A stretch of 64,000 nt of DNA from Mayamaea pseudoterrestris (taxonomy: Eukaryota): contig BROI01000038.1 in the NCBI GenBank assembly GCA_027923505.1, forward strand, positions 124,001-188,000. The letters are read 5' to 3'. The number at the start of each line of letters is the position of its first letter. The first letter of the stretch is position 1. Below are positions 35,761-43,320 of this stretch, piece by piece. Under the pieces are notes generated by a model. That model saw nothing but the letters and a program-made list of their open reading frames with translations, was not told the origin of the DNA and made no database searches. The translations under genes and the position numbers were made by a program.

Positions 35761-37842
35761 CTAATCAGTCTTCTTTTCTTCTCCGTTCTTGACAGGGTTG
35801 CCAAGAATTGTGTGATTGAGGCCTTGAGGTGTCGTAACTGTCATTCGGCGACAGCAAGTAACGTGGTGGGGTATCAATACACCAGCCAGCTTGCGCTGAA
35901 AGCGAGCAGTTGTCACCTGGTGGTCGTCAGTCAAAAACTTGGCATGGACAATTTGGCGACTTGCGGCTTCAATGCGAACGCCATCTTGCTTGTACCATGT
36001 GTGAATGATCCAATCCTTGATCGAACTACCTCGCTCCGTGTATGTGTCAAAGTCGGAAATAAGCAGCCGTCCATCAACCGACATGAGAGTCTTGGCTGAG
36101 TCCAGCGCACATTGCCAGTCGGGAATCATGCTGAGCGAGTAACTGAAAGTGACAGTGTCGAAACCGCGGCCGACAGCTTGTCCGCAAACGTCAGCAAGCT
36201 TTGAGCGAACGTCCTTGGAGTTGATGTCAAGACATAGCCAGATGATCTTGTCGCACTGCGCAGATGTGAAGGAGCGACGCGCATTGTGCTCGCCAATGGC
36301 AAGCAACTCTTGGCAGATGTCGAGCACTACAATATGATCAAACAAGTCCAGCTGCGCTCGCAAATAGTGAAGGTTTCTACCAGTGCCTCCACCAATATCG
36401 AGCCAGGTATGTCCCTTCTTGATCGTTCCAAAAGCCGACATCATTTCCGGTCGCGCAACTAGCATCTTTTCGCGGACAGCATCGTAACCAATTGCTTGAT
36501 CCGCGTAGAATGAAGACATTTTGTCGCCATGCGCGCTCACCTTGCCAGCCGTCAGTGGATGCAAAATCATCTTGGTGGTTGTCTTTAGCTTGCGGACAAA
36601 CGACGCTCGCTGGACTGGTGACGGTTCAGGATCAATGAATGGAAAGGGATCACGTGGCATGAAGCAGCAAAACGTCCCAGGGTACATCTTGACGCGGTCC
36701 TTGGAGTACCATGCAGGACTTAGATCGGTAATGTTGAGATTGTTGAAGAATGGCTTGTCATCCATCTTGGTAAAGGCCGATCGCCAAAGGCAAAGTGCAC
36801 CTGGAACGGCCGCTCGCTGAAGGGCGAGCCACTCGTCGTGAACAATGTTATTGGGCATCCAGTCCATGTGATCTAGGAGCACCAACTTGGTAAAAGAGTG
36901 AGGTTTAACGCGCTCCATGGTTTCTTGAACGGTCGCATGATGCCATTCAAAGCAGCTAGCGTTGGCCCGCAAGGCTTCAAAGTGTTCTGGCTTGAGCGTA
37001 CGTGGACAGCATGACTGATCCTTGTATCCCTTTTCGTAGTAAAACCGATAGAAGTAGTTGGTGCGTCCAAAGTCTGGATCCAAAAAGATTTCACGGAGGA
37101 TGCTTTCGTAGAACTCGACCGTGTAAAACTCGGGTCCTATCTGGTTGGACGGCACTCCGGCAAATGGCGCCAATACGCTTGGAAAGAGCTTGCGAAACCA
37201 CCAAGCCGATCGTTCAATCATTGCCGAATTCTCGCGGATGTACTCGTGGCTAAAGCCAGTCTCGGCCCAAGACTTGATATCGAACCCAACCACATGCATG
37301 AGCCATGGCACTAATAGCTTGGCAGCGAATCCAGTCGATCCACTGGTGGCGTAGCCATTTCGAAAGACACGTTCAATGCGACCATCCCACCATTTGCGTC
37401 CAGTGCTGCTCATGGTGTGTCGCATACGCTTCCAAACACGCATGGCAACGTTAACGTCGGACGACCCCCAAATGCTCCACCACTCGTCGTAGGTGAGACT
37501 TGCGTCGCGAAGCATGCGAATCTTGAGTTCGAAGAGCCAAAGCTGGTGTTGATTCATGTCGCAAACGACAATCTTTTGCGGACCTTCAATGGCATAGTCG
37601 AGCACAATGTCCCCAGCACTGCAGATTCGAAAGATGACATCGTCCTTGGTAATCTTGAGTATTTCATGATCGACCGCCGGATCCTCCCAGCAAATGTTGT
37701 AAATGTAGGTTCTGTTGCAGATCTTTTCAATCATGGAGAAAGAGCCAGTGAGCAAGCGGCGGAGAAAGACGTATGAAAGCGTCAAGGCCGTGAGCCACGT
37801 GTATGGCGAGTCGAGGGGAATCTTTTGAATGGTTGATGCCAT
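35761..37842 (-). CDS. BTA1: Betaine lipid (DGTS) synthase, BtaA-BtaB fusion
   Basis: BtaA/DUF3419 motifs YIYNICWEDPAVD, CSAGD, DMNQHQLWLFELK, NYFYRFY, LLDHMDWM, RVKMY; BtaB methyltransferase FYADQAIGYDAVREKML, WLDIGGGTGRN, TFSYSLSMIPDW. Confidence 0.93.
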   Translation of the reverse strand: MASTIQKIPLDSPYTWLTALTLSYVFLRRLLTGSFSMIEKICNRTYIYNICWEDPAVDHEILKITKDDVIFRICSAGDIVLDYAIEGPQKIVVCDMNQHQLWLFELKIRMLRDASLTYDEWWSIWGSSDVNVAMRVWKRMRHTMSSTGRKWWDGRIERVFRNGYATSGSTGFAAKLLVPWLMHVVGFDIKSWAETGFSHEYIRENSAMIERSAWWFRKLFPSVLAPFAGVPSNQIGPEFYTVEFYESILREIFLDPDFGRTNYFYRFYYEKGYKDQSCCPRTLKPEHFEALRANASCFEWHHATVQETMERVKPHSFTKLVLLDHMDWMPNNIVHDEWLALQRAAVPGALCLWRSAFTKMDDKPFFNNLNITDLSPAWYSKDRVKMYPGTFCCFMPRDPFPFIDPEPSPVQRASFVRKLKTTTKMILHPLTAGKVSAHGDKMSSFYADQAIGYDAVREKMLVARPEMMSAFGTIKKGHTWLDIGGGTGRNLHYLRAQLDLFDHIVVLDICQELLAIGEHNARRSFTSAQCDKIIWLCLDINSKDVRSKLADVCGQAVGRGFDTVTFSYSLSMIPDWQCALDSAKTLMSVDGRLLISDFDTYTERGSSIKDWIIHTWYKQDGVRIEAASRQIVHAKFLTDDHQVTTARFQRKLAGVLIPHHVTCCRRMTVTTPQGLNHTILGNPVKNGEEKKTD

Positions 37843-38019
37843 GGTTGGTAAAGGTTGATGGTGGAAAGAGGGGACCTTTTATATGTTGTTTTGATCGTTC
37901 TTGCGAATGGAATAATAAAAGGGAAGAGTGTGAGACTGAACAAGTGGCAGGCAAACCCAGCAGACTCGCATTCACTCATCAGATTAGCTTTGCAATATCC
38001 GATCCGATCCAATGCAATC

Positions 38020-38425
38020 CAAGGAATCTTTACAGCTTTCTTTCTGACGAGGCTGTTTGTTCCAAGCTGCTGCACGTTCGAAATGAGCGATTCACTCGTT
38101 CAGAGAGCAGACCAGACGAAGCAATGAGCAGAAATGAATCCTTTCACGCAACGCTCATCAAGCACTTACTCGTTTCGCAAAAGTCTAACAATAATGATGA
38201 GCCTTGTCTTGTTTACCTTTGAGCGAATCTGTCACCAGTGCCGACTGTCTCTACAGATTCGATTCGTCGTCGTCGCGGTGGTGCAGCTTTTTCATCCGCC
38301 GCGCCGTTGTCGCGCGTCATTGGATTCATTCGAGTCCTTTGCGTGACGCGAATTTCAAAGCACAGCCGCTCATTCATGTGCAACAGGAATCTGGTGAATT
38401 TGGCGCGAACGTGAAAAAGATTCGC
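38020..38425. promoter_or_regulatory. Bidirectional promoter with clustered GAATC/GATTC motifs (candidate phosphate-starvation regulator sites)
   Basis: Nine GAATC cores on either strand at 38024, 38089, 38136, 38225, 38256, 38261, 38323, 38387 and 38419. Confidence 0.55.
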
Positions 38426-38488
38426 CGCGACCGAGGCGCGCCGCTCGACTCGTCACTTTCGACGAAGCGGAACCCCTCGCTTGCAACC

Positions 38489-40375
38489 ATGGGACCGACA
38501 AGTACTTCTTCTGCACCAGATGCTACGTCCAAGAGCAGCAGCAAGATTATAGTTGCTAGTGTCGCAAAACCAAAGAATACTCCGCTTCCAATAAGTGCTT
38601 CTTCCATCTTTTGGACCAAGGAAACCTACGCTCATGTCGCAGCCGACTTTCATGCCTTTCACAAGCATGACTTGAATGTATTGGCGCATCTATTCACAAC
38701 AACGCTTGGTGTTTGGGGCATGATGCAACTTGCAGTGGAATATAACTGCACTGCGGCTGTCCATGCATATGGATTGCTAGTGTTGCTGACGACGCCAATC
38801 AGGACGGCTCTCTTACATTCAATCCTTCTCTATGGAATGCTACCAGTGAATGCAAACCATATGGGAAGCTTGCTTTCGAATTTCTTGCAATCATATACTC
38901 CACTTCAAGCTCCAGACTCATTCAGCCCGATTCATGTTTGCCTCGCGGCCATTGCCCTCGGGTATGGACTCCAAGACCTGGCGCACTACCTAGCGTGTGA
39001 ACAAACCTATATGAACTTCTACATGGCTGCCTCCAAACAGTACATGCTAGTCATTCATTCGCTTTGGTTGCTACCATTGGTCATTGATTCAATCTTGATG
39101 AAAAGCTTACTGCTACCAAAGTTGCTCGTCACGAGGAACCGATGCCTTGTTGTTCCAATGGTGGCTTCCAAACAAGCCGTTGATGCACTGCGGACATGGA
39201 TCAACGTTAACGTTAAACCAACCAAAGAAACGACTCATCTTTGGCCGCACGAACATGCAGGAACGGATCTAGCCGTCACCCAATTGGAGCATGATGCAGC
39301 CATACAAGCAGCTTTTGAACAAATCTTTGCGCCGCATCACTACAGCATCAAGCCCGTCATTGACATGAACGAAATTTACGTCACAGCCGTTGGTCCAAAG
39401 ACGCAAATTAACTCAGACGCCGTCTTTTACACGCCACATACGGATGGACCCTACTGGTGGCTGCCTGGTTGCTCGCTCTATCGCGTCTTGGTCGGCGTGA
39501 CACCGAACAAAAAGGTTCGAACGCGCTTCAACCTGCAACATTCCTCCTGCGACCAAGCACTTGACTTGCACGGAGCGCTCGGGTTTGATTATAACCGCGA
39601 GCTGCACTGGATTGACCATGTTCCAAACACTCATAACTCGGAGCGCCGGTCCCTCGTCAAACTTCACTACATTGTATACCCATTCGGATGGCACAAGTAC
39701 GGCAGATTGGCGGCGCACTTGAATGCCAGCTACAACACATGGGCGCGAAACAACTTTCTCAAGACCTTGCGGCCCGCCACTGTGAGCGATCACTTGCTGG
39801 CGTGGTGGATTTGGTTGACGACCTGGGTGAATGCAATGTTTGAGGAGCACATTGGCTGGGCCAACTTGACCTATGTTTTGGCTAGCTACGCACTCTTGCC
39901 ACCGTTGGGGTTTCTCATTGCAACATCCTTTCGACACTATGCCGTCTACATTGCCACGTTTGCGTCTCGTCAACCTGCCGTTGCGCATGGATACTTAATG
40001 CGCGACGCGAAACTTTACAAGACGATTAGCATGTTGCACTTGGCGCGCCGCTTCTCTCCACTGGTCGTCTTGCCGCGCGACGTGCCGGCTTTGCTCATTG
40101 CTAGTCTTGGTTTCGCCACGACGCTCCTTGCAACGGCTCGGCTCGGCATGGTTCGCACTTACTTTGGATCGGAGCTTGGGTTTGTTCCGCCAAAATGGAT
40201 CAATGGCTTTCCATATGGTTACATTCCGCATCCCATGATCAACGGACAGATTTTTGGGTTTGGCGTTTTGCTTTGGTGGTTTTGGAATGACTTGTCGACG
40301 GAGAATGTTGCTTTGATGTTGGCGCACATTGGTTGCTACGCTACGCACATGTTTCAGGAAATAGTGTTTGGTTAA
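38489..40375 (+). CDS. Multi-domain membrane enzyme: Mpo1/DUF962-like N-terminus, HxD...H dioxygenase-like centre, PEMT-like C-terminus
   Basis: FHAFHKHDLNVLAH and LQDLAHYLACE (His-rich Mpo1-like); FYTPHTDGP...FDYNRELHWI; LGMVRTYFGSELG...GFPYGYIPHPM (PEMT-like). First ATG in frame is 38489. Confidence 0.75.
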   Translation: MGPTSTSSAPDATSKSSSKIIVASVAKPKNTPLPISASSIFWTKETYAHVAADFHAFHKHDLNVLAHLFTTTLGVWGMMQLAVEYNCTAAVHAYGLLVLLTTPIRTALLHSILLYGMLPVNANHMGSLLSNFLQSYTPLQAPDSFSPIHVCLAAIALGYGLQDLAHYLACEQTYMNFYMAASKQYMLVIHSLWLLPLVIDSILMKSLLLPKLLVTRNRCLVVPMVASKQAVDALRTWINVNVKPTKETTHLWPHEHAGTDLAVTQLEHDAAIQAAFEQIFAPHHYSIKPVIDMNEIYVTAVGPKTQINSDAVFYTPHTDGPYWWLPGCSLYRVLVGVTPNKKVRTRFNLQHSSCDQALDLHGALGFDYNRELHWIDHVPNTHNSERRSLVKLHYIVYPFGWHKYGRLAAHLNASYNTWARNNFLKTLRPATVSDHLLAWWIWLTTWVNAMFEEHIGWANLTYVLASYALLPPLGFLIATSFRHYAVYIATFASRQPAVAHGYLMRDAKLYKTISMLHLARRFSPLVVLPRDVPALLIASLGFATTLLATARLGMVRTYFGSELGFVPPKWINGFPYGYIPHPMINGQIFGFGVLLWWFWNDLSTENVALMLAHIGCYATHMFQEIVFG

Positions 40376-40390
40376 GGTTGATAGCTACTG

Positions 40391-43320
40391 TCATAAACTC
40401 TTGTCGCCGTCAATAGGTGGCTCGTAGAGCTCTGTTGTGTTGCTGTTTGGTTCCATCGAAAGGCTCGAAATCACATCCATCGGTAGCAAGACTGTGTCAC
40501 CGATCGGCATGGCAATTTTTTCAGCGGACACGTTTGTAACAAGGACTTCCCCAGACAAAGTTGTATTGGTTGGCACATCCATCTCCAAAATGGCTAGCTC
40601 GTCGGCAGCGTCGGTAGCATTGGTGGCAATTAAGCCAGGACCCTCCTTCTTTTCGAGAATTTCTATACTGTCGGCGGCAATAGGTGCATTGAGGATTGCT
40701 TCCGTCTCGAGCTCCTCCGCCAGTGCTTCTTCTTCAGGCGTTAATGTCACCTTCTCGTTGGTTCCGTCGTTATCGTCACCTAAAGCCGATTCGTCGCCAC
40801 GCGCGCTAGTGCCACCGTCCGTGCTGGTCTGGTTACTCACAGTAAGTGCGATTACATCAAACGTTGAATTATAGTCGCCGTTTGGAACCGTAGCTATTGT
40901 CACGGCAGTGAGGCCATCCCTTCTAACTCCGTTACCCGACGAGTCAATCTCAGATATGCCAGTAGCATCAATGGTATCAGTCGAGTTCAACATTGGTATA
41001 GCTCCGTCCTTTCGTTCTAGTATTTCTATACTATCAGCAGCTATGGGAGCGTTAAGAATGGCCTCGGTCTCAAGTTTTTCAGCCTCAGCTTTTTCTAGGA
41101 GAGTTGAAATAGCCTCTATTAGTTCGGTTGCAGGCATCGGTTTTGATATGTCGTCCTTTGATGTCAAAGCGGGATCCTCTGCACTCGGTGAAGTCACATG
41201 CGACTCCTTTCCACTCACTTCTTCGTTGGCTGCTACAGAAGCGCCATTAACATGGCTTGTATCGGGAGGCCCACGAACTGGGTTCTCATCTCCGTGTGGC
41301 GGCTCGCCGTCGCCGTTCGCCGCGATGCCTTTAGCGATGAGGTTGGGCGATCGTACATCTTCAGCAATGGCATCTACTGATGGTAATGCTGACCTTATAA
41401 AGTTAGCCGCGCATCCAACCTGCATTGCAACAGCCTCTTGCGCACTCACAATCGGCTCTAGGGCAAGTGGAATACCCTTTGGTAAAATATCACCAGCAAT
41501 AATATCGGCATAGTCGGGCATGTGCGAAACGATTGTAGACACGGACTCGCCGGTGCTATATGGCAATGGCTTCATCGTACGAGCAAGGTCGAAACCACTG
41601 TTCGAGGCTGATGCTGATTTCGATGAGTGTACGGCGATATCAAGCTGCGACAGCAAACCGTCGACAAGGGGCACCTCGGTGACTCGTGCCGGTATCATGG
41701 CCTCTGCTGCGTTTCGAAGTATTCTTGCCTCTTGATCTCGCTTTTGGTTTTCTAGGTCTTCCAAAGCTTTGCGCTCTGCGCGTTCTCTCTCTTTTCGTAA
41801 TCGTTCAGCTTCGAGTTCTTCGGCCTCTTCGACAGTGTAGCCTCGGAGTGGAAGTTGCATGTCAGAGAGCTCGGCGTCCTTAACTTTTTGGTGCGACACT
41901 GGATATTGTTCCAAACCATTTAACCATCTTACGGACCCAGCATTCGTTTCGGCAATCAAGGTATCGACAACCAGTGGGTCCTCGCCTTTTCCGTATGACT
42001 GTACGATAAGATTATATGGGTGAAGGAGAGTGGTGAGAAAGAAAGTGGGGAACGTTGTAACAGCAATGACCGTTCGTAAGACATAACTATACGTACCTCG
42101 TTCTCATAAGGATCTAGCAGTTGTTTGGCAAGATCAAACAGACCTTGATACGAAATTGTAAGTAGGCCAATGCCCATGACAGTAATCAACGATGACATAC
42201 CGGATGTGTACGCCATCCAAGGATACATGCAGAGAATGAGATCAACGAGAACTTGCACGATATGCGCATATGCCAAAGGCATTCTTCCTTGTAACTCATC
42301 TCCGATAGCTCCATACTGCGCTCTGGCTACATGACACTTTTCGAGTATTTGGTCTTCGAATCCTGCTCCACCGAGAAAGTGCCCAGCCTCTCGCCCTTCC
42401 ACATACGTTCGAACGATCCAAAGCAAGACAGCCGTATGTCGCTGCGTCGCTGGAATGTCGGCATCCACCAAGATTTCCCTCTCGCGCGCCGTCATGAGCC
42501 CGCGCTCCACCAGTCGTCGCATTCCTCGCGGCGTCAATATTGGTCGATGCGATCGAGTAAAGGAGCCGTACGTCAAAATATTGAAGAGACGAACGTAGCG
42601 ACTGACTAGTTCAAGCACTTGTCGACTGCCAGCTGTATAAGTAGATGGTTCATTTGGATTGGTTGGTGGTTTGCGGACGGCGTGTGCGGCAAGCGTCAAG
42701 TTAATGTCGTGCAGTCGTCCCTGGAGTCGCCGACTGAGGTCGTAGCACTTGCGCCAAAGTGCGTAGCTTTGATTGACAAAGAATGTCAGCGTAAAGGTTG
42801 TCACGCTCAGCAGCTGTCCCCATAGAATGCCGAATCCAGATAACCACGTCTTTACTTGTGGAACGGAATGACAAACAATCAAGACAATGGTTGCGTAGGC
42901 CATGCGCTTGATTACGGAATCCCACGTTTCGGAAAAGATTGTTCCCTTCCATCGCTTCCATATGAAATTCGACGATGGATCAAACTGAAGCATAATGGGT
43001 CTCCGGGCGCTGGTGCGTACGCATTCGTCAATCAAGTCGTCAATGAGTTTCTGCGTCGATGCTTGTTCAATGATGGATTCGGGTGTTGTCAAAACCATGT
43101 GTAATGCGGTAGATGATTTACAGGGGGAGGATGAAAGTACTTCTTTCAAAGCTACACATAATGGAGTCGTATGCCTAGCGGCTAATGCTCCTTTCTGATT
43201 ACATTGTCCAGCATGATGGAGGCTCGTCGAAAATCCCGAGATGGAAGCCGCAGATAGCAGGACAAGCCAACAAGTTAGAAATCGTTCCTTTCTCCAAACT
43301 TTTCCTTGATTTATTATCAT
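40391..43320 (-). CDS. Bestrophin-family channel with long acidic C-terminal tail, intron 42096-41999
   Basis: TFTLTFFVNQSYALW, RMPLAYAHIVQVLVD, YQGLFDLAKQLLDPY; splicing gives DPYENESYGKGEDPLVVDTLIAETN; N-terminal signal peptide ending ISG-F. Confidence 0.88.

Follow-up and report, generated by a model that had tools for sequence, protein, structure and literature searches.

The published phosphorus-stress lipid-remodelling cluster of marine bacteria consists, in the portion of the source available, of plcP followed by btaA and btaB, and the BtaA-then-BtaB domain order that we find in a diatom BTA1 is referred to in published excerpts as the 'marine' configuration. The enzyme that converts DGTS to DGTA was described as not known in a 2023 paper, in agreement with the preliminary description of the locus analysed here, which had called it not established. 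Production of DGTA by heterotrophic bacteria is suspected as well, again with no known gene according to the accessible part of the report. No paper discussing the gene denoted X below was found in the searchable literature.

The window, a 64,000-nucleotide stretch of a Mayamaea pseudoterrestris contig (BROI01000038.1, positions 124,001 to 188,000), contains BTA1 and X in head-to-head orientation across a spacer of 646 bp (Table 1), and the list of open reading frames gives the same coordinates for this pair as the preliminary description. Judging by its domains, the minus-strand gene is a type-A BTA1 and thus a predicted DGTS synthase: the DUF3419/BtaA match (PF11899) has an E-value of 9.9e-68 and 229.5 bits against a cut-off of 28.2, and a SAM methyltransferase region follows C-terminal of BtaA, with Methyltransf_23 (E 2.7e-13) as well as Methyltransf_12, _31, _11 and Ubie matching residues 468-611. 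The protein is 72-77% identical to the syntenic copies on metagenomic diatom contigs.

Table 1. Features of the BTA1–X locus (positions are those of the window)
Feature	Position	Strand	Basis
BTA1, predicted type-A synthase of the betaine lipid DGTS, 693 aa	35761..37842	-	ORF and Pfam
BTA1, BtaA-like (DUF3419) domain, aa 43-393	36664..37716	-	PF11899
BTA1, BtaB-like SAM methyltransferase domain, aa 468-611	36010..36441	-	Methyltransf_23 and other families
Divergent spacer BTA1/X, presumed common promoter region	37843..38488	.	ORF starts, 646 bp
Partner gene X, predicted three-domain membrane enzyme, 628 aa	38489..40375	+	ORF
X, N-terminal helical membrane domain, Mpo1-like, aa ~37-213	38597..39127	+	model helices, PF06127 in relatives
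X, middle soluble domain, predicted Fe(II)/2-oxoglutarate (2OG)-oxygenase fold, aa ~214-402	39128..39694	+	predicted fold
X, H317-T-D319, proposed iron-binding HxD	39437..39445	+	invariance
X, H373, proposed distal iron-binding His	39605..39607	+	invariance, model position
X, C-terminal helical membrane domain, PEMT/ICMT-like, aa ~403-628	39695..40372	+	PF04191

The product of the X frame is 100% identical to a hypothetical protein of M. pseudoterrestris. The NCBI model of this gene (P0001, 691 aa) includes an additional, non-conserved N-terminal exon joined via an intron and, because of this exon, the spacer would shrink to roughly 280 bp; alignments with homologues of X cover the 628-aa frame only from about residue 38 onward. 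The spacer is rich in the motif GAATC/GATTC, which occurs nine times in 646 bp (13.9 per kb versus 2.05 per kb window-wide), at least nine copies being reached in just 0.5% of sliding 646-bp windows. The orthologous spacers of four metagenomic diatom contigs (L001, L009, L013 and L024) are also enriched in this motif (4.7-11.8 per kb).

We consider the three-part architecture of X to be real: a putatively Mpo1-like part lies in the membrane, a soluble part has a predicted 2OG/Fe(II)-oxygenase fold, and a second membrane part resembles PEMT, a SAM-dependent methyltransferase; the AF2 model has a pLDDT of 85 and a pTM of 0.81, and the Pfam matches of relatives (PF06127 and PF04191) together with the modelled middle fold bear out the three-domain reading of the preliminary description. 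The N-terminal domain is helical in the model (residues 37-213). PF06127 (Mpo1-like) does not match the window protein at E <= 1 but is detected in seven of 32 diverse relatives (best E 2.6e-5), and a precomputed match to the same family exists for another diatom homologue (P0019). Among diatom X proteins, H58 and N63 are conserved and H67 is nearly invariant, the corresponding H-x4-N-x3-H columns are invariant in the diverse set, and H166 and E171 show little or no variation. Mpo1 depends on Fe(II) and frees CO2 from a 2-hydroxy acid; the histidines of H58-x4-N63-x3-H67 may be iron ligands and may correspond to those of Mpo1. The title of PF06127 in Pfam is '2-hydroxy-palmitic acid dioxygenase Mpo1-like'.

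The middle domain is modelled as a jelly roll (double-stranded beta-helix), the fold of the 2OG superfamily, and contains the HxD/E...H triad of that superfamily: H317, D319 and H373 are invariant across 30 eukaryotic and bacterial X sequences, the first two forming the 'HTD' motif of the preliminary description. The role of H373 as the third iron ligand is suggested by this invariance and by its model position at the opening of beta strand 373-377. Candidates for a basic residue that would bind the C5 carboxylate of 2OG are the invariant R332 and R370 and the nearly invariant R387 and K391. Fold matches include PHD2, viral collagen prolyl hydroxylase, AndA, AsqJ, the TraH decarboxylase, AlkB homologues and others. 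The curated 2OG families of Pfam have no match in the window protein or its 32 relatives and a PDB sequence search returned none, so that membership in the 2OG oxygenases is proposed from fold and triad. The soluble metal-binding HxD...H domain suspected at the outset is thereby confirmed and sharpened to a 2OG/Fe(II)-oxygenase fold.

In the C-terminal domain, PF04191 (PEMT) matches residues 534-596 of the window protein with 19.6 bits, under the gathering cut-off of 25, and 31 of the 32 diverse relatives at E <= 0.01 (best 6e-10). Thus, X is predicted to carry a PEMT-like domain, yet the Pfam threshold does not class it as a PEMT. Diatom X proteins share without variation the motifs G573-F-P-Y576, H581-P-M-I584 and Q623-E624; the HPM motif and the C-terminal QE resemble SAM-binding motifs of the PEMT/ICMT-like family.

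The head-to-head pair is found in the window and, beyond it, in four of the five independent diatom metagenome lineages, on the contigs L001, L009 (= L023), L013 and L024; in the fifth, the organism represented by L005, L006 and L025, the two genes are not adjacent. BTA1 and X stay paired even without the flanking gene Y, as in the window, or with Y in another place, as in L013. The adjacency is not universal because in Ostreococcus tauri, for which only DGTA has been reported, the genes numbered next to BTA1 encode a kinase and ribosomal protein L24e.

In bacteria, BtaA- and/or BtaB-like frames are located within about 3 kb of X in 22 of 30 loci, from phyla including Planctomycetota, Myxococcota, Pseudomonadota and Spirochaetota. 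The usual arrangement is a tight plcP-like–btaA–btaB–X operon with X as the last gene and overlapping start and stop codons (for example, 8013/8016 and 9215/9218 in L031). By Pfam, a DUF3419 gene adjoins X in 18 loci, and in 12 a gene for a calcineurin-like phosphoesterase (Metallophos) is immediately upstream of btaA, giving the order Metallophos–DUF3419–methyltransferase–X and linking X to a PlcP-type phosphoesterase as well as to btaA and btaB; locus L060 also contains the Metallophos gene, with btaA itself missing. A BD1-7 gammaproteobacterium (L057) has X ahead of btaA and btaB, and X and the bta genes are convergent in a myxobacterium (L051); the linkage accordingly outlives rearrangement of gene order. 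The preliminary description had made conserved microsynteny with BTA1 a test of its proposal, and the pairing in diatoms together with the operons in bacteria puts the arrangement beyond chance. A DUF3419 gene is present somewhere in 27 of the 30 X-bearing genomes, and none was found in the other three, all of which are MAGs. Some of the DUF3419 genes encoded away from X could be non-BtaA paralogues. Among 201 sampled Planctomycetota genomes, 44 have DUF3419, and only one of these 44 has full-length X; X is thus rare among btaA-bearing bacteria and would therefore represent an accessory step rather than a part of DGTS synthesis.

Expression data from Phaeodactylum point in the same direction. 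In the supplement (S1/S2) of Alipanah et al. (2018), the gene Phatr2_42871, denoted 'Phospholipid methyltransferase, putative' and regulated solely by phosphorus deprivation, shows log2 changes of +2.45 at 48 h and +2.90 at 72 h of phosphorus deprivation, and the BTA1-like Phatr2_42872 shows +2.31 and +2.73 at the same times. Phatr2_42871 is probably the Phaeodactylum orthologue of X, as indicated by its annotation and by a number adjoining that of BTA1 rather than by sequence; if so, X and BTA1 are induced almost identically.

It might be argued that X is an ordinary PE N-methyltransferase or an unrelated lipid enzyme that adjoins BTA1 through neutral synteny, given that homologues are named 'phospholipid methyltransferase' in databases and that flanking synteny is partly conserved among the diatom loci as well. 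However, the pair outlasts the flanking genes, four bacterial phyla likewise have X next to btaA/btaB, in differing gene orders, PC synthesis under phosphorus starvation would be counter-productive, and the PEMT-like part is the last third of the protein, where the window sequence scores below the Pfam cut-off; we consider this explanation highly improbable. The diatom adjacency, the bacterial operons and the shared induction strongly support the proposal of the preliminary description that X is a partner of BTA1 in the metabolism of phosphorus-free betaine lipids, as opposed to an ordinary PE N-methyltransferase, and it is very likely that X tailors lipids of the DGTS pathway.

The predicted iron/oxygenase-type and methyltransferase domains may be capable of the chemistry of head-group conversion, and X is the best available candidate for the enzyme of the DGTS-to-DGTA step. 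DGTA is its most likely product, with chances that we judge to be about even. With slightly more reserve, we propose that X is a DGTA synthase that would, as one membrane enzyme with three domains, move the carboxyl of the DGTS head group to its new position by O2/iron chemistry together with a SAM-dependent step. X would be a membrane-embedded tailoring enzyme downstream of DGTS synthase (BTA1 in eukaryotes, BtaA and BtaB in bacteria), acting while phospholipids are replaced under phosphorus stress. BTA1 would make DGTS in the ER membrane and X would remodel the homoserine-betaine head group within the bilayer, with its two O2/iron domains carrying out oxidative steps; one of these would remove the original carboxyl, which the classical labelling model calls 'decarboxylation'. 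A methyl transfer by the SAM-dependent domain would help to rebuild the head group, by re-methylation of nitrogen, by transient esterification of the carboxylate or by supplying the carbon of the new carboxyl; the derivation of that carbon from the SAM methyl group is given much lower odds. Both the sequence of these steps and their chemistry are speculative, and we know of no precedent for domains of these types moving a carboxyl group.

Alternatively, X could use DGTS or its precursor diacylglycerylhomoserine and yield a product other than DGTA, such as a hydroxylated, partly demethylated, methyl-esterified or other betaine lipid, possibly of an undescribed class. The linkage evidence speaks to coupling with DGTS synthesis and not to the product, hydroxylation and demethylation are the commonest reactions of 2OG oxygenases, to whose families the middle domain has its fold matches, uncharacterised betaine-like lipids ('BLL') are reported in marine bacteria in a figure legend of the source available, and X is present in choanoflagellates and diplonemids, for neither of which a DGTA record was found. 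We nevertheless view such a product as rather unlikely: DGTA is the sole known abundant DGTS-derived lipid and still lacks a gene, three catalytic domains would be superfluous for a simple hydroxylation, and the holders of X include diatoms, haptophytes and Mamiellales, groups with reported DGTA. The occurrence of N-demethylases among 2OG oxygenases and the AlkB homologues among the fold matches might also suggest turnover, in which X, instead of building a new lipid, would break betaine lipids down, perhaps through oxidative N-demethylation, or would make their nitrogen and carbon available again. This appears improbable, given that X is the last gene of an operon co-transcribed with the synthesis genes, that its probable Phaeodactylum orthologue is induced with BTA1 as betaine lipid accumulates, and that a SAM methyltransferase domain fits catabolism poorly.

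The phyletic distribution of X is broad. Full-length homologues are found in haptophytes, prasinophytes, alveolates, diplonemids, choanoflagellates and several bacterial phyla; named holders are diatoms, Chrysochromulina, Mantoniella, Pterosperma, Pyramimonas, Chromera, Prorocentrum, diplonemids, choanoflagellates and Corallochytrium. Hence X is not the ochrophyte matter envisaged in the preliminary description but is widespread in marine protists and extends to bacteria. Some of its holders, including a dinoflagellate and haptophytes, belong to DGCC-rich groups better known for that lipid, which is a point against the DGTA reading and in favour of the possibility that X makes DGCC, the third betaine lipid, the biosynthesis of which is likewise not known in the literature. 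Against this, X occurs together with btaA/btaB, the head group of DGCC is no simple DGTS derivative, and the DGCC producer Thalassiosira pseudonana, reported to lack BTA1, btaA and btaB, has no X among the named matches listed; this role for X seems very remote.

Returning to DGTA, the distribution of X overlaps the 'marine' BtaA–BtaB clade of BTA1, in which planctomycetes are basal according to the available portion of the source; no report of DGTA in planctomycetes was found in the literature, nor were betaine-lipid data for choanoflagellates and diplonemids. The 349 matches listed include no named X protein from Phaeodactylum, brown algae, cryptophytes or chrysophytes, and none from fungi; the matches were filtered by word, and the absence of these algal groups among those listed is weak evidence. 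For Cryptococcus neoformans, Bta1-dependent production of DGTA is reported, the lipid having been assigned by retention time, so that either DGTA arises without X or the assignment is wrong. The DGTS/DGTA assignments in green picoalgae conflict among papers, and isomer assignments in the literature are patchy, which allows just a loose comparison of X holders with DGTA producers.

If X is indeed a DGTA synthase, it would fill the missing DGTS-to-DGTA step in the pathway of phosphorus-free membrane lipids, and some marine heterotrophic bacteria (among Pirellulaceae, Myxococcota, BD1-7 gammaproteobacteria and spirochaetes) would make DGTA from a plcP–btaA–btaB–X operon. The btaA–btaB–X block would then be common to bacteria and marine eukaryotes, type-A BTA1 having arisen by fusion of btaA with btaB, and X having kept its place beside it in diatoms.

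The His-rich, helical N-terminal domain may resemble yeast Mpo1 (PF06127/DUF962), a 2-hydroxy fatty acid dioxygenase, given the PF06127 matches in seven of the 32 relatives, but these matches are weak, the domain is fused to two others, and the proposed substrate is a head group, in contrast to the fatty acid of Mpo1. The middle domain shares just 7-17% sequence identity with the Fe(II)/2OG oxygenases that it matches in fold and differs from them in its placement between two membrane domains. PEMT and bacterial phospholipid N-methyltransferases (PF04191; ICMT-like group) are matched by the C-terminal ~200 aa of X; however, PEMT, which N-methylates PE, consists of one domain and has about 200 aa, whereas X, with 628 aa and three domains, has its methyltransferase domain fused to two oxygenase-type domains and is encoded in the context of phosphorus-free lipid synthesis, not PC synthesis. 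The plcP–btaA–btaB cluster of marine bacteria and algal BTA1 share their neighbourhood and physiological context with X, as far as the available source text goes, and the gene order of this cluster is the domain order of the window BTA1. The clusters described in that text end at btaB and make DGTS, whereas in the loci analysed here X is appended as a fourth gene.

The gene order in bacteria provides decisive evidence that X, the 628-aa protein encoded next to the betaine lipid synthase BTA1 in the window, is linked to DGTS synthesis. When prokaryotes were scanned with a single genome for each species, 30 loci encoding X were identified, in 22 of which BtaA- and/or BtaB-like ORFs are located within approximately 3 kb of this gene (tblastn search with the window BTA1 as the query). 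Pfam analysis of 123 neighbor ORFs, a subset of the 204 selected from the regions within about 5 kb 5' and 3 kb 3' of X, placed a DUF3419 gene next to X in 18 loci and revealed a recurring one-strand unit in 12 Pirellulaceae-type loci, namely calcineurin-like phosphoesterase, DUF3419, methyltransferase and X, in this order, with coding regions that overlap or almost touch. A phosphoesterase followed by btaA and btaB constitutes the 'type 1' PlcP lipid-remodelling cluster, in which PlcP, induced by phosphorus starvation, provides diacylglycerol, according to Sebastian et al. Other arrangements include X-btaA-btaB in a BD1-7 gammaproteobacterium (L057), DUF3419-btaB-X in two spirochaete MAGs (L056 and L058) and a DUF3419 fusion convergent with X in a myxobacterium (L051). 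The myxobacterial fusion is a 922-aa protein in which DUF3419 accounts only for the C-terminal 360 aa and the N-terminal part of about 550 aa has no Pfam match. In nine planctomycete loci, the plcP-like-btaA-btaB-X genes are directly preceded, on the same strand, by a gene for a Ser/Thr protein kinase that may regulate the cluster, and a transketolase gene often follows X.

Among the genomes that carry the eight loci without adjoining bta genes, five encode DUF3419 elsewhere and three, all MAGs, show no DUF3419 gene; some of the distant DUF3419 genes, which score lower (E of ~1e-53 to 1e-63), may be paralogues from other pathways. In an evenly drawn sample of 201 Planctomycetota genomes, DUF3419 is present in 44 and full-length X only in the centre genome, with weak partial matches in two more. 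X is therefore a rare add-on that is nearly always found alongside the DGTS synthesis genes, as would be expected if the enzyme used what these genes produce.

In the window, the divergent BTA1 and X ORFs with a 646-bp spacer, as reported in the preliminary description, agree with the ORF calls in coordinates, strands and lengths. In the type-A BTA1, Pfam places a DUF3419/BtaA domain (aa 43-393, E 9.9e-68) N-terminal to a SAM methyltransferase domain (aa 468-611); NCBIfam yields generic methyltransferase matches only. The window is DNA of the diatom Mayamaea pseudoterrestris, and a database search matched X at 100% identity with a hypothetical protein of this species, for which the NCBI model gives 691 aa, with an intron joining an extra 63-aa N-terminal exon, so that the spacer is either 646 bp or approximately 280 bp depending on the gene model. 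The start of the 628-aa ORF looks more likely because none of the homologues examined conserves the N-terminal extension, the alignments beginning at about residue 38. Contigs from four runs of a single study (run type unspecified) are available for this region: those of one run span all of it, and those of the other three cover both ORFs and leave most or all of the spacer uncovered. In two of these three runs, contigs start at 38465-38467, slightly 5' of the ATG at 38489, with the caveat that contigs cannot show ends. No exon joints were seen in the contigs of the four runs, which are thus silent on the intron in the NCBI model.

Coordinates of the features discussed in the text
Feature	Sequence	Coordinates	Strand	Remarks
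BTA1	window	35761-37842	-	693-aa ORF, type-A
X	window	38489-40375	+	628-aa ORF, divergent from BTA1
BTA1-X spacer	window	37843-38488		646 bp, between the two ORF starts
Region of the 63-aa N-terminal extension with intron (NCBI model of X)	window	38121-38488
Acidic low-complexity protein	window	40391-41860	-	489 aa
Bestrophin-like gene	window	41956-43320	-	74-77% identical in the alignable part, syntenic in several contigs
Bestrophin-like gene	L006	6646-10125
Bestrophin-like gene	L023	11252-14632
Bestrophin-like gene	L026	5876-8918
Orthologous BTA1-X spacer	L001	3582-5153
Orthologous BTA1-X spacer	L009	7222-8169
Orthologous BTA1-X spacer	L013	394-1327
Orthologous BTA1-X spacer	L024	7045-10000
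Y directly before X	L005	1247-6130		Y and X on the same strand
Y directly before X	L006	1695-6578		Y and X on the same strand
Y directly before X	L025	1357-5308		Y and X on the same strand
Four coding regions of the bacterial unit	L031	7021-8016, 8013-9218, 9215-9994, 10001-11923
Ser/Thr kinase gene	L031	5010-6830		same strand as the cluster (all nine)
Ser/Thr kinase gene	L032	5049-6824
Ser/Thr kinase gene	L033	4112-5905
Ser/Thr kinase gene	L034	5199-6839
Ser/Thr kinase gene	L035	80-1966
Ser/Thr kinase gene	L038	6209-7855
Ser/Thr kinase gene	L041	4989-6815
Ser/Thr kinase gene	L042	6683-8533
Ser/Thr kinase gene	L060	7012-8850
DUF3419 fusion	L051	5338-8106	-	922 aa
Viral middle-domain relative	L061	1006-2106	+
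Viral middle-domain relative	L062	~1690-2405	+

A metagenome scan yielded 30 X loci, eight of which extend 1.3 kb or more upstream of X. BTA1 is located head to head with X in five of these contigs (L001, L009, L013, in which the contig end truncates it, L023 and L024) and is absent upstream of X in three (L005, L006 and L025). Because the flanking ORFs are identical, L009 and L023 represent one organism, as do L005, L006 and L025; the BTA1-X microsynteny across diatoms is accordingly retained in four of the five independent metagenome lineages as well as in the window. Synteny alone is weak evidence because the flanking genes are partly syntenic as well: a gene for a bestrophin-like membrane protein is found downstream of X in the window and three contigs, and Y, a gene encoding 670-790 aa, is located upstream of BTA1 in L001, L009/L023 and L024. 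The BTA1-X pair is retained where Y is missing (window) or moved (L013). In the exceptional lineage, Y directly precedes X and BTA1 is gone from between them. In Ostreococcus tauri, a kinase and ribosomal protein L24e are encoded by the genes whose numbers adjoin that of BTA1 (published supplement), and therefore the BTA1-X adjacency is not universal in eukaryotes. We also observe, between X and the bestrophin-like gene of the window, a 489-aa protein that has an internal duplication, in which 'ETEAILNAPIAADSIEILE', any of several residues and K stand in this order twice, and is weakly similar to portions of ORFs in L006, L023 and L026.

The spacer of the window contains nine GAATC/GATTC motifs, against 2.05/kb across the window, and GAATCT reaches 7.7/kb compared with 0.53/kb. 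Four other diatom contigs show the GAATC/GATTC enrichment in their orthologous spacers too, and the motif may be a common cis-element of the BTA1-X spacers; a GAATC-like motif is presumably that of the diatom phosphate-starvation regulator (PSR). The P1BS motif of plants and green algae (GNATATNC) is absent from the window spacer, occurs twice in total when the four orthologous spacers are included, and is thus not enriched relative to 0.25/kb.

Published expression data are available for a likely counterpart of X in Phaeodactylum. In their supplement, Alipanah et al. (2018) list Phatr2_42871, 'Phospholipid methyltransferase, putative', the number of which adjoins that of the BTA1-like Phatr2_42872. 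Under phosphorus deprivation, the log2 changes are 2.45 (48 h) and 2.90 (72 h) for Phatr2_42871 and 2.31 and 2.73 for Phatr2_42872, and the former gene is included in the list of those regulated only by phosphorus deprivation (Alipanah et al., 2018). From the gene number and the annotation, which is the one JGI and UniRef give to X homologues, we infer that Phatr2_42871 is X; a literature search found no paper that mentions this gene in its text. In O. tauri, the 'Phospholipid methyltransferase' ostta03g00520, by annotation a possible unlinked orthologue of X, shows a fold change of 11.0 in P-limited versus complete medium (proteome supplement).

X is not confined to diatoms. An exhaustive search of 50%-identity representatives detected 551 proteins with E <= 0.001, of which 128 reach E <= 1e-30; full-length matches with 33-43% identity are numerous. 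The holders include diatoms (Fistulifera, Seminavis, two Nitzschia, Licmophora, Thalassionema and Chaetoceros debilis), haptophytes (Chrysochromulina tobinii and C. parva), green prasinophytes (Pterosperma, Pyramimonas and the mamiellalean Mantoniella), alveolates (Chromera velia and Prorocentrum minimum), four diplonemids, the choanoflagellates Monosiga and Salpingoeca, Corallochytrium, and bacteria (Rhodopirellula, Roseiconus, and Planctomycetota, Myxococcota and alphaproteobacterial MAGs). In a maximum-likelihood tree built rapidly from 46 sequences, a fully supported branch separates all 20 bacterial sequences from the eukaryotic ones, which form three supported groups: diatoms, holozoans and an alveolate/green/diplonemid group. 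Viral contigs scanned with the diatom X alignment gave no match, and with the bacterial alignment only stand-alone relatives of the middle domain were detected. These proteins, from two giant-virus contigs and 29-36% identical to the middle domain (one is 366 aa long), lack both membrane domains of X and have no BTA1 nearby.

According to Bolik et al. (2023), BtaA domains form two clades, a 'marine' one with the BtaA-BtaB order and a 'freshwater' one with the BtaB-BtaA order. Planctomycetes stand at the base of the marine clade, which encompasses diatoms, haptophytes, cryptophytes, Mamiellales, choanoflagellates and alveolates. The named X holders come from groups included in this marine clade, and its domain order is also that of the bacterial operon, btaA then btaB. 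Common inheritance of a btaA-btaB-X block would account for both the holder groups and the gene order; the X tree itself resolves no more than the split between bacteria and eukaryotes. As for the lipids, the betaine lipid of Phaeodactylum is DGTA, Pavlova contains DGTA and DGCC, and Thalassiosira pseudonana, which has no named X match among the matches listed, produces DGCC and lacks BTA1. One report gives DGTA as the sole betaine lipid of O. tauri; another study called green-alga betaine lipids DGTS from phylogeny alone. None of the DGTS-only organisms (Chlamydomonas, Nannochloropsis, fungi, Rhodobacter and rhizobia) is found among the 349 X matches listed. Against DGTA as the product stands Cryptococcus, for which Bta1-dependent DGTA has been reported, yet no fungal X is present among the matches listed. 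For X-bearing bacteria, no lipid data were found in the literature.

Taken as independent comparative evidence, the operons and the diatom adjacency strongly support a functional link between X and betaine-lipid synthesis, as proposed when the partner was suggested to work with BTA1. X probably tailors lipids of the DGTS pathway, and there is an even chance that its product is DGTA. Diatoms, haptophytes, brown algae and others contain DGTA as one of their main membrane lipids outside the plastids. DGTA is among the lipids that spare phosphorus in marine plankton, and serves as an acyl-editing hub for EPA/DHA in diatoms; its origin from DGTS was reportedly proposed in labelling work of the early 1990s. 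That the converting enzyme has not been established, as the preliminary description stated, agrees with a 2023 paper in which both enzyme and mechanism are still described as not known, and the accessible part of a 2026 review of stramenopile lipids names no such enzyme. Our literature search on DGTA synthesis, BTA1/btaA/btaB and diatoms found no paper naming X or any converting enzyme; an earlier mention elsewhere is possible. With a concrete candidate gene, the DGTS-to-DGTA question becomes directly testable. If confirmed, X would be a molecular marker for DGTA producers, heterotrophic bacteria included, in ocean metagenomes and metatranscriptomes, would account for the betaine-lipid difference between type-A and type-B BTA1 lineages, and would open DGTA engineering. 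The fusion of two iron oxygenases with a membrane methyltransferase would then also represent new chemistry.

The three-domain architecture assigned to X is borne out by an AlphaFold2 model built from an alignment of 32 diatom sequences (pLDDT 85, pTM 0.81), by Pfam matches in relatives and by invariant residues. The model consists of helices (37-213), a mixed alpha/beta domain (~214-402) and a second set of helices (402-627). The C-terminal helices match PEMT in 31 of 32 diverse relatives and, below threshold, in the window protein, and the N-terminal helices match the Mpo1-like (2-hydroxy-palmitic acid dioxygenase) family in seven of these 32. The founding member of the Mpo1-like family takes the carboxyl carbon off a 2-hydroxy acid. 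In the model, the middle domain, previously described as metal-binding, has a 2OG-oxygenase fold, with H317, D319 and H373 invariant in 30 sequences from diatoms, other protists and bacteria, as are E295, S309, R332, D367 and R370. In the scheme that we propose, DGTS made by BTA1 or BtaAB would be remodelled in the membrane by X. According to the literature, the head group is decarboxylated and recarboxylated when DGTS is converted into DGTA, and the two O2-activating iron domains of X, Mpo1-like and 2OG-type, could correspond to the decarboxylation. The SAM methyltransferase domain might restore N-methyl groups, esterify the carboxylate or provide the carbon of the new carboxyl; any order of these steps is speculative. 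The 2OG-oxygenase superfamily, to which the fold matches of the middle domain belong, includes decarboxylating members such as TraH.
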